Below, one piece after another: positions 3,135 through 43,895 of a stretch of DNA of 64,000 bases. The stretch's first letter is position 1. The number at the start of each line of letters is the position of its first letter. The stretch is taken from IMG/VR virus record IMGVR_UViG_2872147552_000001; one strand, written 5' to 3'. The DNA comes from a virus (lineage: Duplodnaviria > Heunggongvirae > Uroviricota > Caudoviricetes). Under the pieces are notes generated by a model that ran no database searches, was not told where the DNA came from, and saw only the letters and a program-made list of their open reading frames with translations. The translations under genes were made by a program, and so were the position numbers.

Positions 3135-3365
3135 ATGTTTGTTCTTATCGCTGGCGTTAACGTGCGCAATGAATATTTTGTTAATCGCATCGCTGGGATC
3201 GCTGGTTACGCTGGGCGCTCAGTCGAGTTTATCGATGAAACAACGCGTAAAATTGATTTATTGAGCGACCAGGAGCGAAAAAAAGCAGACGTGAACGACG
3301 CTGATATATTTTTAATGTTAAAAGCGTTTGTAGAAATGGGATTTAAAATCAGTTTACACAAATAA
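3135..3365 (+). CDS. hypothetical protein (76 aa)
   Basis: Same aaggagcttta RBS context as the previous gene. Confidence 0.45.
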   Translation: MFVLIAGVNVRNEYFVNRIAGIAGYAGRSVEFIDETTRKIDLLSDQERKKADVNDADIFLMLKAFVEMGFKISLHK

Positions 3366-40750: not shown

Positions 40751-41395
40751 TTACAGCGCGTCAGTTGGCTTTTTACGCGCTGCATTTATGCTTATGACGC
40801 CAGCTTTAGGACGTGGATCGACAAGGTTCAGTTCTTCTTCGCTATGGTATTCAAGGTCGAACTCACGTTTTACATGTCTGATGTAGATTGCAGTGAGCAG
40901 GCTATCTTTGGTCAGGAAGTGTCCGTAGGATTTGCGGATCACTTCTTCAACCTTCTCGATTTTCTCACCACCCATGCAGAGGTGATTAAACCGGCTGTGT
41001 TTCCGCAACATCTCGTCAACTGGGCCTGAGTAAACCTTGTCTACTTTCCCAAAACGAATGATTTTTCCTGTATCTGCGGATACAAGGCAAATCAGTTTGT
41101 CTGGTGATAAACGATCTCGCCACGTTACTCCTGAACGGAGTGTGTTGAAGTAGGGCGCATCCAATCCGATGATCGGTTTACGAAATGCGAGCAATGGAAC
41201 GTACCTGATACAACTATTCAAATGAAAGTTCACACCAGCCTTATCAAGTTTAATTCTGGTTTCGTAGATCGGGCACTTCGCCGCTATACCGCAGATATCA
41301 CAAAGTAACTTCTGCTTATTCAGGTTGGAATTTGATTCGATAGTGTAGGAGCCGTCCTCAAGACGACGAACCCAGCGCGTGCGTTTTAGATCCAT
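40751..41395 (-). CDS. hypothetical protein (214 aa)
   Basis: Basic protein with CxxC; sits beside the origin. Confidence 0.45.
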   Translation of the reverse strand: MDLKRTRWVRRLEDGSYTIESNSNLNKQKLLCDICGIAAKCPIYETRIKLDKAGVNFHLNSCIRYVPLLAFRKPIIGLDAPYFNTLRSGVTWRDRLSPDKLICLVSADTGKIIRFGKVDKVYSGPVDEMLRKHSRFNHLCMGGEKIEKVEEVIRKSYGHFLTKDSLLTAIYIRHVKREFDLEYHSEEELNLVDPRPKAGVISINAARKKPTDAL

Positions 41396-41482
41396 AATCG
41401 TTTTTTCAGTAGTTATTGGCCGATGCTACGATAACTCATTAGGCATACCTTAATCTGCATTTGCCTGTTTTACTTATCCCAG

Positions 41483-41700
41483 TTATCCACTGGATAGATC
41501 CAAATAAGAGATCCCAAGTAAGATCAAATAGAAGATCCAAAGAGATCCCAGATCGCCTCTAGCCGTTGCGGTTACTGGTCTGAAAGGGTGTTGCCATCCA
41601 CTATGGAGAGCAAAGAAACCTCTGTAGAGAGCTGAATAACCGCTATGAAGAGTAAAACAACCACTCTGGAGAGCTGTATATATCCACTGTAGAGAGTAGA
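41483..41700. promoter_or_regulatory. origin-like unit 1: DnaA box, GATC cluster, iteron array
   Basis: TTATCCAC at 41483; six GATC in 41497-41554; five approx 21-bp-spaced iterons CCACTnTrGAGAG 41596-41700. Confidence 0.6.
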
Positions 41701-41808
41701 GCACATTGTCTTTTATGGATAACTTAATGACTTAATTCTTCATTAACATACTGATATACATAGATATATTTTAAACTCTACTCTTAGTCATGATTCTTAT
41801 GTCCTTAA

Positions 41809-42098
41809 ATATCCACAGAAGAGTAGAGTTACCTGTTCTTGAAATCCTCTGATTTTTATCCACAGGCCCGATCCAGTAATTCAGATCACAAAGAGAACCA
41901 AAGAGACCCATAAAGACCCAATAAGATCCCCGCCCACCTCAAACCGTTGTGCCATCTGCCTTCAGACATGATCGATATCCACTATAGAGAGCGAATAATC
42001 CACTATAGGGAGCAAAGCAACCACTATAGAGAGGAGAAAAACCACTATAGACGGTAGGATAACCGCTGTGATGAGTGCTACTATCCACTGTAATCAGC
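41809..42098. promoter_or_regulatory. origin-like unit 2 (incC-like): DnaA boxes, GATC sites, iterons before repA
   Basis: ATATCCACA 41809, TTATCCACA 41856; GATC sites; six iterons 41976-42098. Confidence 0.65.
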
Positions 42099-42138
42099 AA
42101 AGGCCACCAAAGCCGTCGAATAACAAGAGACATTTGGA

Positions 42139-43194
42139 ATGAGCGAAAACGGCAATAAAAACATAGCGATCGTTGAAGCATTTTCAGAAACAGATAAAAA
42201 GACAGGCGAAGTTGTTACGTTGGTTCCTAACACTAATAACACTGTTCAGCCTGTTGCTTTGATGCGTCTGGGCCTCTTCGTTCCGACGCTGAAATCGACA
42301 TCCAGAGGAAGAAAGGGGCAAATGGTCTCTATGGATGCCTCTGCTGAACTCAAACAGCTGTCTCTGGCAAAAGCCGAAGGGTACGAAGACATAAGGATCT
42401 CTGGCCTTCGGCTTGATATGGATAACGACTTTAAAACGTGGGTGGGAATAATCCACGCGTTTGCCAAACACAAGGTCGTTGGCGATACTGTCACGTTGCC
42501 GTTCGTTGAGTTTGTAAGGCTGTGTGGCATTCCGACCGCCAGGTCATCAGCGAAGTTACGCAAACGCCTGGACAGTTCGCTAAGCCGTATTGCCACAAAT
42601 ACCATCTCGTTCCGTAGTAAAGGCTCTGATGAGTTTTACGTAACGCATCTTGTGCAAACGGCAAAATATAGTGTCAAGCACGATACGGTCGAACTGAAAG
42701 CAGATCCCAAGATTTTCGAACTCTACCAGTTCGACAAAAAGGTTCTTCTGCAACTCCGGGCTATAAACGAACTCTCAAGAAAAGAATCCGCTCAGGCGCT
42801 TTATACTTTTATTGAAAGTTTGCCGCCTGATCCGGCACCAATATCACTAGCCCGTTTACGCGCCAGACTTAATCTGACAAGTCGCACTATTACTCAGAAT
42901 GCGACGGTAAGAAAGGCTATGGAACAGCTGCGAGAGATAGGATATCTCGATTACACGGAAGTTAAGCGCGGAAACTCGGTCTACTTCGTCATCCACTATA
43001 GGCGGCCAAAGTTACGCCAGGCACAAATATCAACAAAAATCGATAATGATGAGACGGAATATAGCCTCCCAGATGAGAATCAAGATGACATTATCGACGT
43101 TGTGCCTGACGAAAAAGAAGGCAAAATGGTCATGTTGAGTAAAGAAGAACTGGCGCTTCTCGAAGAGTTGCGCAAGGCAAAGACTCGCAAATAG
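42139..43194 (+). CDS. repA: replication initiator RepA (P1/RepFIB iteron-binding type)
   Basis: [77 protein letters not shown] recalled as hallmark of P1/RepFIB RepA; iterons on both sides. Confidence 0.85.
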
Positions 43195-43196
43195 CC

Positions 43197-43675
43197 CAAC
43201 CACTGTAGTTAGTAGTAAGGCTCACTATCCACTGTAGTGAGCCTTACTTATATCTGTAATTCGCTATCCACTATAGTGAGTATCGTTATCTGTTGATAAC
43301 CACTGTAGGCAGTAGAATGCAAATACTGAATTAAATGTTAGTGATCACTAACACTGATGAAACAAGGGCTGCGAGGTTAGTGGTCACTGGGTATCTTGGA
43401 AAATTTACTGTCTATAGTGGTTGTTGTCGCCCTCATCTTTGAGCGTATCCACTGTGGCGAGTGGATATCCACTGAAAACAGCAAAGGCTTACTCACCATA
43501 GTGTATACCCGCTGGACATCTCACTCCAATACTCACCATAGTGGTTGTTTGATGCGAATGAAAGGCTGTCTACTCGCTACAGTGGTTAGCAGATATGTAG
43601 GAAGAGAGGACTGCAGACCACAGTGGATAATGAGCTGATACGAATGCGGTGAGCTGGCTACTCACCGCAGTGGTT
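43197..43675. repeat. incA-like iteron array downstream of repA
   Basis: At least ten CCACTGTAG / CTATAGTGG type iterons in both orientations. Confidence 0.65.
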
Positions 43676-43682
43676 GGTGCTA

Positions 43683-43895
43683 TTAGTGTATTTTCTTCAA
43701 CAGACCCCAAAGTGTTCCGGCTTTTGTAGTCAGTTTTCCTGTTTCTGGATCGTACATACGCCATTCACGCCGCTGGTGGACGATATACCCATCTTCACGT
43801 TCCAGACGCTCAAGAATGCCAGGCTGCTTGAAACCCTTAGCGCGCCAGTATCCGCTTGTTTTCTCGATTTCCAGACCTGCCAGTGTTAATGCCAT
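43683..43895 (-). CDS. hypothetical protein (70 aa)
   Basis: ORF coupled to upstream gene. Confidence 0.4.
   Translation of the reverse strand: MALTLAGLEIEKTSGYWRAKGFKQPGILERLEREDGYIVHQRREWRMYDPETGKLTTKAGTLWGLLKKIH

Follow-up and report, generated by a model that had tools for sequence, protein, structure and literature searches.

Why would a single repA gene be preceded by two origin modules? In an SSU5/pLF82-like phage-plasmid, repA has two homologous P1-type modules upstream of it, which we call U1 (distal, 41483-41702) and U2 (proximal, 41856-42101). This raises the questions of whether the doubling is real, whether it is peculiar to this element, and whether the two copies have the same role. 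All positions refer to the window, by which we mean the whole 64-kb stretch of DNA that was analysed. The two modules are collinear and have the same order of parts: DnaA box, GATC heptamers, G+C-rich spacer, and 5 or 6 iterons at a 21-bp pitch. The features of the region are:

41483..41491, + strand: U1 DnaA box, TTATCCACT (from the motif map)
41493..41556, + strand: U1 heptamer run, with six GATC (Dam) sites at 41497, 41510, 41522, 41534, 41544, and 41551
41557..41595, + strand: U1 G+C-rich spacer (GCCTCTAGCCGTTGCGGTTACTGG...), from alignment and conservation
41596..41700, + strand: U1 array of five 19-bp iterons, starting at 41596, 41617, 41638, 41659, and 41682 (spacing 21-23 bp)
41703..41855, no strand: inter-unit spacer
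41714..41722, - strand: inverted DnaA-box-like element (TATGGATAA)
41856..41864, + strand: U2 DnaA box, TTATCCACA, which is the consensus and the sole exact copy in the window
41866..41930, + strand: U2 heptamer run, with GATC at 41870, 41884, and 41925
41931..41976, + strand: U2 G+C-rich spacer, with a fourth GATC at 41970, immediately 5' of the first iteron
41977..42101, + strand: U2 array of six iterons, starting at 41977, 41998, 42019, 42040, 42061, and 42083; predicted repA operator
42076..42084, + strand: predicted repA promoter, extended -10 TGCTACTAT, between or overlapping the last two U2 iterons
42139..43194, + strand: repA, encoding a 351-amino-acid initiator of the Rep_3 family (Pfam Rep3_N, E=1.3e-10, and Rep3_C)
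43195..43682, no strand: incA-like control region with ~12 iterons, six forward (43200-43469) and six reverse (43408-43661)

The element is 99.3% identical to phage Cyrano and 99.8% identical to ~110-kb E. coli plasmids. Its RepA is 100% identical to that of Cyrano, 91-92% identical to those of SSU5 and pMT1, and 47.5% identical to those of P1 and P7 (tblastn, E=1e-71). The window also shares its gene neighbourhood with SSU5, Cyrano, pMT1, and the E. coli relatives: a divergent ASCH-like ORF lies upstream, and Cra-like and small ORFs lie downstream. On these similarities, we assign the element to the SSU5/pLF82-type phage-plasmids and its replicon to the pMT1/pHCM2/SSU5/pLF82 group. GC skew, which is negative across the whole region, was uninformative for locating the origin; the long ORFs around repA are all on the minus strand. 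A search for structured RNA in the region gave no Rfam match, even at E<=1.

Two homologous modules upstream of repA

The first-pass annotation of this DNA had proposed a tandem duplication of the origin unit, and the alignments bear this out. U1 and U2 are 68% identical over a collinear alignment of 216 positions (z=24.5 relative to dinucleotide shuffles), and their heads, without the iterons, are 70% identical (z=12). Each of the two units can be aligned over its entire length, also collinearly, with the oriR/incC region annotated in P1. (The P1 record, AF234172, has one oriR with DnaA boxes, 5 Dam sites, and 5 incC iterons that contain PrepA, along with repA and 9 incA iterons.) Judging from these alignments, U1 and U2 are truly homologous and arose by tandem duplication of a module of the oriR/incC type. 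Iteron cores with two or fewer mismatches are confined to 41598-43585 within the 64-kb window; if up to three mismatches are allowed, there are 32 matches, versus 10.7 +/- 3.3 expected.

The boundaries that had been given for the units are essentially right, except that homology between the units begins at 41856 and not at 41809. At 41809-41829, within the inter-unit spacer, there is a lone degenerate iteron or DnaA-box-like element. Each unit does contain the DnaA box, GATC cluster, and five to six iterons that were ascribed to it, but the GATC cluster of U2 is weak on its own. The GATC sites of U1 (41497-41551) are the densest such cluster in the window, and random placement gave 6 GATC per 70 bp in 7 of 2000 trials. 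The U2 cluster by itself is not statistically remarkable, and the U2 heptamer run is recognisable only by its homology to U1 and P1. Its central heptamers are AGAACC (41894), AGACCC (41904), and AGACCC (41914).

The opening 21 bases of U1, TTATCCACTGGATAGATCCAA, match the left end of P1 oriR exactly, and the U1 heptamer run aligns with the annotated P1 Dam sites 1-5. All of the U1 GATC sites are kept in SSU5, pMT1, Ec77, and Buttiauxella. The G+C-rich spacer of U1 includes a CTGRRAGGGGGT-like motif that is common to the distal units of SSU5, Moellerella, and Pantoea, and the position-specific variants among the U1 iterons are conserved in SSU5 and pMT1. Directly to the right of these iterons, the TGGATAACT block at the inverted DnaA-box-like element is invariant in the SSU5 clade, while the spacer around it is poorly conserved. 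Inverted DnaA boxes are found at the equivalent site, right of the distal iterons, in Rahnella, Pantoea, Erwinia, and Buttiauxella.

The spacer between the units had been described as AT-rich, and at 41703-41855 it is 72% A+T. We considered that it might be a conserved unwinding element that fuses the units into "one long origin," and we rejected this idea: the high A+T content is specific to the window's lineage (the A+T fraction is 0.48-0.67 in relatives, and pMT1, pHCM2, and SSU5 do not share the unusual richness), and the spacer is the least conserved segment. The spacer also contains a strong promoter-like site (TTAACA-16-TATATT, 41743-41770). It is not conserved in SSU5 or pMT1, so we did not take it to be the repA promoter.

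The doubling is old and widespread

The earlier description implied that the doubling was a peculiarity of this element, which is not the case: pMT1, pHCM2, SSU5, and many other relatives are arranged alike. The full 743-bp upstream region is present in 91 of 5,426 complete E. coli genomes (~1.7%). It is in one piece in 90 of these, and in the 91st it is split only by the start of the record. No natural variant without one of the units was found among the 91 genomes. In a plasmid collection, 334 records cover at least 80% of the region; pMT1 and pHCM2-like plasmids contain it at 80-81% identity over 98-99% of its length. The full upstream region is also present at ~80% identity in phage SSU5, Enterobacter, and Citrobacter.

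Tandem repeats are prone to mis-assembly, and this, like the unremarkable GATC cluster of U2, would fit a second unit that was created by faulty assembly, that was duplicated recently in this strain alone, or that is a functionless remnant in neutral decay. We give this explanation almost no credence, as it is already refuted by conservation. Hundreds of complete plasmids that were assembled independently have the identical arrangement, as do distant genera, and the intact region in E. coli genomes and plasmid records excludes an artefact of assembly. Also, at just 68% identity, U1 and U2 are too different for an assembler to confuse. As for a decaying remnant, no segment is better conserved between the window and the SSU5 clade than the DnaA box and heptamer run of U2 (87-95% identity, versus 84-85% for the repA coding sequence), and the only conserved repA promoter motif sits in U2.

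Two heads were found in 46 of 88 surveyed loci; the survey includes the window and previously fetched relatives, and the loci are not phylogenetically independent, so these counts overstate the support. The two-module layout extends to Rahnella, Erwinia, Pantoea, Cedecea, Buttiauxella, Kluyvera, and Xenorhabdus, whose RepA homologues are 62-91% identical. Among SSU5, pMT1, Ec77, and Buttiauxella, the identity is 0.96-0.99 for the U1 head, 0.92-0.99 for the U2 head, and 0.83-0.92 for the spacer. Both iteron arrays, like both heads, are more conserved than the spacer between the units.

In a tree of the heads across genera, distal heads group with distal heads and proximal heads with proximal heads. 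(This is a neighbour-joining tree of 111-nt heads, which is noisy, and we use it only for this broad pattern.) Since the heads group by position across genera, the duplication predates pMT1, pHCM2, SSU5, pLF82, and the other lineages. The exceptions are Buttiauxella-MAG and Cedecea, in which U1 and U2 group together; these may reflect gene conversion or a separate duplication. On this distribution, we consider the doubled module to be standard in the pMT1/pHCM2/SSU5/pLF82 "IncFIB" replicon and in many Enterobacterales plasmids.

The first-pass annotation also stated that P1-type replicons normally have one unit. This is correct for P1, as annotated, and for other relatives: Klebsiella-type SSU5-like plasmids, the RepFIB-type replicon of SJ46, and Pantoea LPP-1-type megaplasmids. 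(We also considered pSW1200 as a member of the family, but it turned out to have an IncY, P1-like replicon.) We found no description of the doubled module in the searchable literature, and a prior account in the primary pMT1, P1, or RepFIB papers is possible. As the architecture is family-wide and is present in sequences that have been public since 1998, we view this as a modest finding that is not peculiar to this element.

The two units differ consistently

U1 and U2 do not look like two equal origins, as they differ consistently in their Dam sites and in promoter content. U1 retains 5-6 GATC sites and has no promoter motif. U2 lacks the central GATC sites, with GAACC or GACCC in their place, and is the sole unit with a conserved extended -10. 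Rahnella, Erwinia, and Pantoea have lost the central sites of the proximal head too. In 44 of 46 loci, GATC sites are more numerous in the distal head than in the proximal one, but the dependence among loci means that this count, and the nominal sign test on it, overstate the support. A distal head has on average 0.13 degenerate heptamers (GAACC, GACCC, or GTTCC), and a proximal head has 1.5. Of the 46 proximal arrays, 42 contain the promoter motif TGnTAnnAT, versus 0 of 46 distal arrays, and in U2 the motif has the same place relative to the last iteron as the annotated -10 of P1 PrepA. The iterons themselves do not show such an asymmetry: position-weight scores, used as a proxy for affinity, did not differ consistently between U1 and U2 across 15 lineages.

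The units also differ in which one is lost. In lineages where one head has decayed, the decayed head is the proximal one. About 14 relatives, from Moellerella, Phytobacter, Franconibacter, Entomohabitans, Scandinavium, Tolumonas, and some Pantoea, keep the distal head and have iterons only proximally. The argument that decay is confined to proximal heads would be weaker if the single-unit relatives descend from doubled ones that lost the distal unit, as is possible in principle.

Proposed roles of the two units

We propose that the origin module was duplicated in tandem long ago, that selection kept both copies, and that their functions diverged, with U1 as the origin and U2 as the operator. 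We lean towards this explanation, with slightly better than even confidence. The split that we infer is that U1 would be the principal origin and would depend on Dam methylation, with DnaA and monomeric RepA opening its heptamer region as in P1, while U2 would chiefly be the promoter/operator of repA and a control module. RepA on the U2 iterons would repress repA; the six RepA sites of U2 would titrate the initiator; and the U2 iterons would pair ("handcuff") with those of U1 and with the ~12 downstream iterons, which would lead to low copy number. U2 may also have some residual origin activity.

Several observations count against this split. The strong conservation of the U2 head, above that of repA, and its consensus DnaA box are more than a mere operator would need. 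The loss of GATC from U2 is no proof of lost origin activity, as the single origins of P1 and SJ46 work with a degenerate heptamer (GGTCC and GAACC, respectively). And it is U2, not U1, that is the positional equivalent of the single functional origin of the relatives.

The roles could therefore be reversed, with U2 as the working origin and promoter, as in P1, and U1 as an auxiliary control locus. The iteron/GATC block of U1 would then act like an additional incA: by binding RepA, SeqA, and DnaA, it would handcuff the true origin or keep it sequestered. The geometry of U2 relative to repA is that of P1 oriR and of all of the single-unit relatives: its DnaA box is at -283 from the repA start, the P1 DnaA boxes are at -277, and its iterons are at the same positions as those of P1 incC and the single-unit relatives. 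The conservation of the U2 DnaA box and heptamer run also suits this arrangement, as does the consensus proximal DnaA box that most lineages have kept, and, as noted above, working origins can contain degenerate heptamers. However, the ~14 related replicons that lack a proximal head have kept the distal head with at least 5 GATC, so in those replicons the distal unit must be the origin. Furthermore, the head that is nearest in sequence to P1 oriR is the distal one, DnaA boxes flank the distal unit on both sides, and a pure control block has no need of a DnaA box, heptamers, and a G+C-rich spacer that are conserved at 0.96-0.99. Overall, we consider a reversal of roles to be unlikely.

Another explanation, which seems to us equally unlikely, is that both units are active origins that are used alternatively or together. 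For example, U1 might be strongly controlled by Dam and SeqA, with U2 less dependent on methylation. Such a pair could keep replication robust as host, growth rate, or methylation state varies, or let one origin stand in while the other is sequestered. Purifying selection on both heads, both DnaA boxes, and both iteron arrays is consistent with this, as is the fact that the 91 E. coli genomes include no variant that is missing a unit. The GATC difference is also systematic: the same central heptamers are altered in many genera, and the AGAnCC shape is kept. On the other hand, some lineages have dispensed with the proximal head, and handcuffing would be expected to cause interference between adjacent origins that draw on one pool of initiator.

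A bolder form of the two-origin explanation, which we consider more doubtful again, is that one initiator serves two origins of deliberately different sensitivity to Dam and SeqA. U1 would be fully methylatable, and U2 would have central heptamers that cannot be methylated and would otherwise be strictly conserved. If so, the choice of which origin fires, and the time for which it is sequestered, would be set by the methylation state or growth phase of the host, and the replicon would contain a switch for copy number or host range. To our knowledge, no such switch has been described for iteron plasmids.

With U1 as the origin and U2 as the operator, which is the split that we favor, the conserved doubling would be a natural system for studying the interplay of initiation, autorepression, handcuffing, and sequestration by Dam and SeqA. 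The suggestion that a doubled origin affects copy number and incompatibility is plausible. The replicon maintains clinically widespread elements (pMT1 of Yersinia pestis, pHCM2 of Salmonella Typhi, and SSU5/pLF82-type phage-plasmids), and its doubling also bears on incompatibility determinants and on the design of curing cassettes against these plasmids.

Comparison with known replicons

By its parts, this is an iteron replicon of the P1/RepFIB type, in a variant with two origin modules instead of one. In P1, the textbook model of iteron control, one set of five iterons inseparably serves both origin function and repA autoregulation. The resemblance to P1 (IncY; oriR/incC-repA-incA) includes the Rep_3 initiator (47.5% identity), the DnaA box or boxes, about five GATC heptamers, the G+C-rich spacer, five 19-bp iterons at a 21-bp pitch with an annotated (P1) or predicted (here) repA promoter, and a block of control iterons in the incA position, directly 3' of repA. 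The differences are that P1 has one module, whereas here there are two in tandem, 373 bp apart; that here the array with the predicted promoter (in U2) and the head with the full set of GATC sites (in U1) belong to separate copies; and that P1 has 9 downstream iterons and not ~12. The iteron sequence also differs (CCACTATAGAGAG here versus GATGTGTGCTGGAGGG in P1), so cross-incompatibility is not expected. According to reviews (PMC5043065 and PMC4980987) and the titles of Abeles & Austin (1987) and Abeles et al. (1993), the P1 origin has DnaA boxes at both ends and is opened by DnaA and RepA.

In the classical RepFIB replicons (P307, F, pO157, and REPI of pColV-K30), upstream iterons BCDD'D'' with a DnaA site and downstream control iterons E-K have been described, and handcuffing of the upstream with the downstream iterons is the accepted model of control (PMC11983097). 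As here, repA is flanked by origin-associated iterons upstream and control iterons downstream; unlike here, descriptions of the classical replicons give one upstream iteron block and one origin, and their RepA is ~44% identical. The RepFIB-type replicon of phage SJ46 has the same head grammar, but just one head, at -256.

The single-unit SSU5-like replicons of Klebsiella and of the E. coli phage PhiR41_1 have the same phage-plasmid backbone and the same neighbouring genes. Beside the upstream ASCH-like gene, they have a DnaA box and GATC head that is ~78% identical to the U1 head of the window. However, the iterons after this one head are five of a different sequence (ATGCTGTCAGCGG), a second unit is absent, and the Rep proteins are 46-51% identical.

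The closest known systems are pMT1 from Yersinia pestis, pHCM2 from Salmonella Typhi, SSU5, and pLF82/Cyrano, which belong to the same family and are typed as "IncFIB" by MOB-suite. Their RepA proteins are 91-100% identical to that of the window. The window's lineage has diverged further on the left side of the region: between the window and SSU5, the leader, the U1 head, and the inter-unit spacer are 0.65-0.76 identical, versus 0.95 for the U2 head. Across this group, both units, the degenerate U2 heptamers, and the promoter motif recur in a 743-bp upstream region that is collinear throughout and ~80-99% identical.

Identity of the replicon

The region around repA is the plasmid-maintenance replicon of a phage-plasmid of the SSU5/pLF82 type, based on its nucleotide identity to known elements and on the matches of its Rep_3 initiator. 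The 2.5 kb around the doubled origin matches Escherichia phage Cyrano at 99.3% identity, Salmonella phage SSU5 at 83%, and many ~110-kb E. coli plasmids at 99.8% (the Cyrano record and pLF82 from E. coli LF82 are both 108,379 bp). RepA is 100% identical to the protein from Cyrano, 91% identical to that from SSU5, and 47.5% identical to those from P1 and P7. In relatives such as pMT1, MOB-suite assigns the replicon to IncFIB; the one described here is a member of the known pMT1/pHCM2/SSU5 family, within the broader P1/RepFIB kind.

Across 30000-56000, repA is essentially the sole long plus-strand gene among minus-strand genes. In the Cyrano annotation, the gene upstream of repA (40751-41395, minus strand) encodes an ASCH-domain protein and the gene downstream (43683-43895, minus strand) a P1 Cra-like protein; a Pfam search gave no match for either.

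Two homologous units upstream of repA

The first-pass annotation proposed a tandem duplication of the origin unit, and both our reading of the sequence and our motif maps bear out this anatomy. We refer to the distal unit (41483-41702) as U1, to the unit nearer repA (41856-42101) as U2, and to the DnaA box, heptamer run, and G+C-rich spacer of a unit, without its iterons, as the head.

Features of the replicon
41483: U1 DnaA box, TTATCCACT
41497-41551: six GATC sites of U1
41557-41595: G+C-rich spacer of U1
41596-41700: five iterons of U1
41714-41722: inverted DnaA-like box, directly right of the U1 iterons
41809: lone degenerate iteron or DnaA-like sequence
41856: U2 DnaA box, TTATCCACA
41866-41930: heptamer run of U2, with three GATC and central heptamers AGAACC, AGACCC, and AGACCC
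41931-41976: G+C-rich spacer of U2, containing GATC at 41970
41977-42101: six iterons of U2
42076-42084: extended -10-like motif of U2, TGCTACTAT, placed relative to the iterons as is the annotated PrepA -10 of P1
42139-43194, plus strand: repA, a 351-aa Rep_3 family initiator (Pfam Rep3_N and Rep3_C)
43195-43682: downstream control region in the incA position, with ~12 iterons in two opposed sets (six forward, six reverse)

The second unit is real, but its homologous start is 41856 and not 41809, as was first annotated. Similarly, a GATC cluster had been assigned to each unit; U1 does have six GATC, but the heptamer run of U2 holds three. The U1 cluster is denser than any other in the 64-kb window, and 6 GATC per 70 bp was reached in 7 of 2000 random placements of the window's 273 GATC sites. 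Iteron cores with at most 2 mismatches are confined to 41598-43585 within the window. If up to 3 mismatches are allowed, there are 32 cores, versus 10.7 ± 3.3 expected, and no shuffle reached 32. Aligned end to end, U1 and U2 are 68% identical (z = 24.5 relative to dinucleotide shuffles), and the heads are 70% identical with the iterons left out (z = 12). Judging from these alignments, the units are homologous copies, not chance clusters of motifs.

Within the repA coding sequence, 42986-43005 is iteron-like (TCATCCACTATAGGCGG) and encodes a conserved ...IHYRRP... motif near the C-terminus. This may reflect coding constraint or an extra RepA site.

Spread and age of the duplication

The second unit is neither an assembly artefact nor a peculiarity of this sequence, both of which had been considered. 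Of 5426 complete E. coli genomes, 91 carry the complete 743-bp region upstream of repA at 97% identity or above, always on plasmids, and 334 plasmid records match it over at least 80% of its length. None of the 91 genomes has a natural deletion variant that lacks a unit (the sole partial hit is split by the start of the record). Versions that are ~80% identical, with 98-99% of the region covered, are found in Y. pestis pMT1, Salmonella pHCM2-like plasmids, Enterobacter, and Citrobacter. Our motif maps show the double unit in SSU5, pMT1, a 77%-identical E. coli relative (Ec77), and a non-phage 211-kb plasmid from Pantoea agglomerans.

For a wider survey, we started from a RepA alignment and scanned one genome per species, which gave 80 loci; with the window and previously fetched relatives, there were 88. 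We mapped DnaA boxes, GATC sites, and iterons, after which a head profile was run against the upstream 1.3 kb. Two heads are present at 46 of the 88 loci, whose RepA proteins are 62-91% identical to the window's: the SSU5 clade, Kluyvera, Buttiauxella, Rahnella, Erwinia, many Pantoea, Cedecea, and Xenorhabdus. About 14 of the 88 have a distal head with iterons and then proximal iterons only (Moellerella, Phytobacter, Franconibacter, Entomohabitans, Scandinavium/Pseudescherichia, a Tolumonas MAG, and some Pantoea). A single head at about -250 is found in P1, the SJ46 RepFIB-type replicon, Klebsiella-type SSU5-like plasmids, PhiR41_1, and Pantoea LPP-1-type megaplasmids.

In a noisy tree of head sequences, distal heads from different genera mostly cluster with distal heads and proximal with proximal, which indicates that the duplication predates the surveyed double-unit lineages. 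In short, the P1-type origin module is duplicated in tandem, and the duplication is real, old, and widely conserved. In a Buttiauxella MAG (L045, L055) and in Cedecea (L056), a locus's own two heads are closer to each other than to their counterparts elsewhere, which suggests gene conversion between the units or an independent duplication.

In Klebsiella SSU5-like plasmids (L005, NZ_CP032225.1, 3194-3313), the annotated 405-aa "RepB family" initiator begins ~40 codons early: its N-terminus, MLSAVNDMLSAVRYMLPTV, is the translation of five origin iterons (ATGCTGTCAGCGG). Alignment with relatives points to a start near 3314.

Roles of the two units

Both copies are constrained, but they are not equivalent. 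Among SSU5, pMT1, Ec77, and Buttiauxella, pairwise identity is 0.96-0.99 for the U1 head, 0.92-0.99 for the U2 head, 0.83-0.92 for the inter-unit spacer, 0.91-0.97 for repA, and 0.61-0.86 for the downstream region, which of all parts of the replicon varies most among relatives (0.53-0.86). When the window is compared with the SSU5 clade, identity is 87-95% for the DnaA box and heptamers of U2, above repA (84-85%). The distal head has more GATC sites at 44 of the 46 double loci (typically 5-6 versus 3-4), although a sign test on this asymmetry is only nominal because the loci are not phylogenetically independent. A proximal head has on average 1.5 degenerate heptamers (GAACC, GACCC, or GTTCC), compared with 0.13 for a distal head, and the same central U2 heptamers are degenerate in the SSU5 clade, Rahnella, Erwinia, and Pantoea. 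Brendler et al. reportedly found in 1991 that mutating the heptamer GATCs inactivates P1 oriR. Of the 46 proximal arrays, 42 have an extended -10-like TGnTAnnAT just 5' of the last iteron; none of the 46 distal arrays does. Iteron scores did not differ consistently between U1 and U2.

We propose that U1 is most likely the main origin and that U2 provides the repA promoter/operator and a supply of RepA sites. Given its anatomy and what is known of P1 and FIB replicons, U1 would be a complete, promoter-free, fully Dam-methylatable origin where initiation mainly occurs. The six U2 iterons would enlarge the pool of RepA sites (~24 in all), titrating RepA and pairing with the origin. The strongest comparative argument for U1 as the origin is that in every relative with one decayed head, it is the proximal head that was lost, while the distal head and the proximal iterons were kept. 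Counting against a purely regulatory U2, its head is under very strong purifying selection and retains a consensus DnaA box. Also, degenerate heptamers are tolerated in working single origins (GGTCC in P1, GAACC in SJ46), and U2 lies where single-unit relatives have their functional origin. Because of these points, we still consider two other arrangements, both of them rather unlikely: U2 might serve as the origin and U1 as a control locus, or, with similarly low probability, both units might be origins.

The A+T-rich inter-unit spacer is not a shared unwinding element, as its A+T richness is lineage-specific. It contains a near-consensus sigma-70-like site facing U2 and repA (41743-41770, TTAACA-16-TATATT, 10/12). 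This was the best consensus promoter hit, but we do not take it as the repA promoter: it is confined to the window's (Cyrano/pLF82) lineage and is not found in SSU5 or pMT1. GC skew was uninformative, and an Rfam search of the region gave no matches.

Relative to SSU5 and pMT1, the window's lineage looks mosaic: the leader, U1 head, and inter-unit spacer (41396-41855) are 0.65-0.76 identical, versus 0.95 for the U2 head (within 41856-42138) and 0.85 for repA. The window's U1 head is about equally close to the Klebsiella-type single origin (78%), P1, and SSU5. This suggests recombination within the origin region of the window's lineage.

Comparison with P1 and FIB replicons

In line with the first-pass annotation's comparison to P1-type replicons, P1 has a single module. 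Its record (AF234172) shows one oriR with DnaA boxes, five Dam sites, and five incC iterons containing PrepA, followed by repA and nine incA iterons, versus about 12 downstream of repA in the window. P1 oriR aligns collinearly with both units. It is nearer in sequence to U1, whose first 21 bases (TTATCCACTGGATAGATCCAA) are identical to P1, but U2 is its positional equivalent, with iteron cores at about -160, -139, -118, -97, and -76 from the repA start, as in P1. The P1 origin is opened by DnaA together with RepA (PMC5043065), and it is known to have DnaA boxes at both ends (PMC4980987; PMC5043065). With the inverted box to its right, U1 has this layout as well; the TGGATAACT block of that box is invariant across the SSU5 clade, and similar boxes occur in several other genera.

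The right-hand DnaA-box block of P1 oriR, AAAACTATCCACACA (L088, 1060-1090), is nearly exact in the SSU5-like plasmid pNX2019-MW3 from Moellerella (L006, 3190-3215), where it separates the first four iterons from a further set of four. This layout looks like an intermediate between single and doubled origins.

In the accepted model for related FIB replicons, iteron-bound Rep autorepresses rep, and upstream and downstream iterons handcuff; one upstream iteron block is described (PMC11983097). We found no description of the doubled module in the searchable literature, which does not cover the original pMT1 papers, where it may have been described earlier. The doubled module is not specific to the window; its moderate interest lies in offering a natural system whose origin and operator roles seem to be split. 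Compared to P1, it is a variant layout: a doubled origin module whose copies appear, from their sequences, to have differentiated in function.
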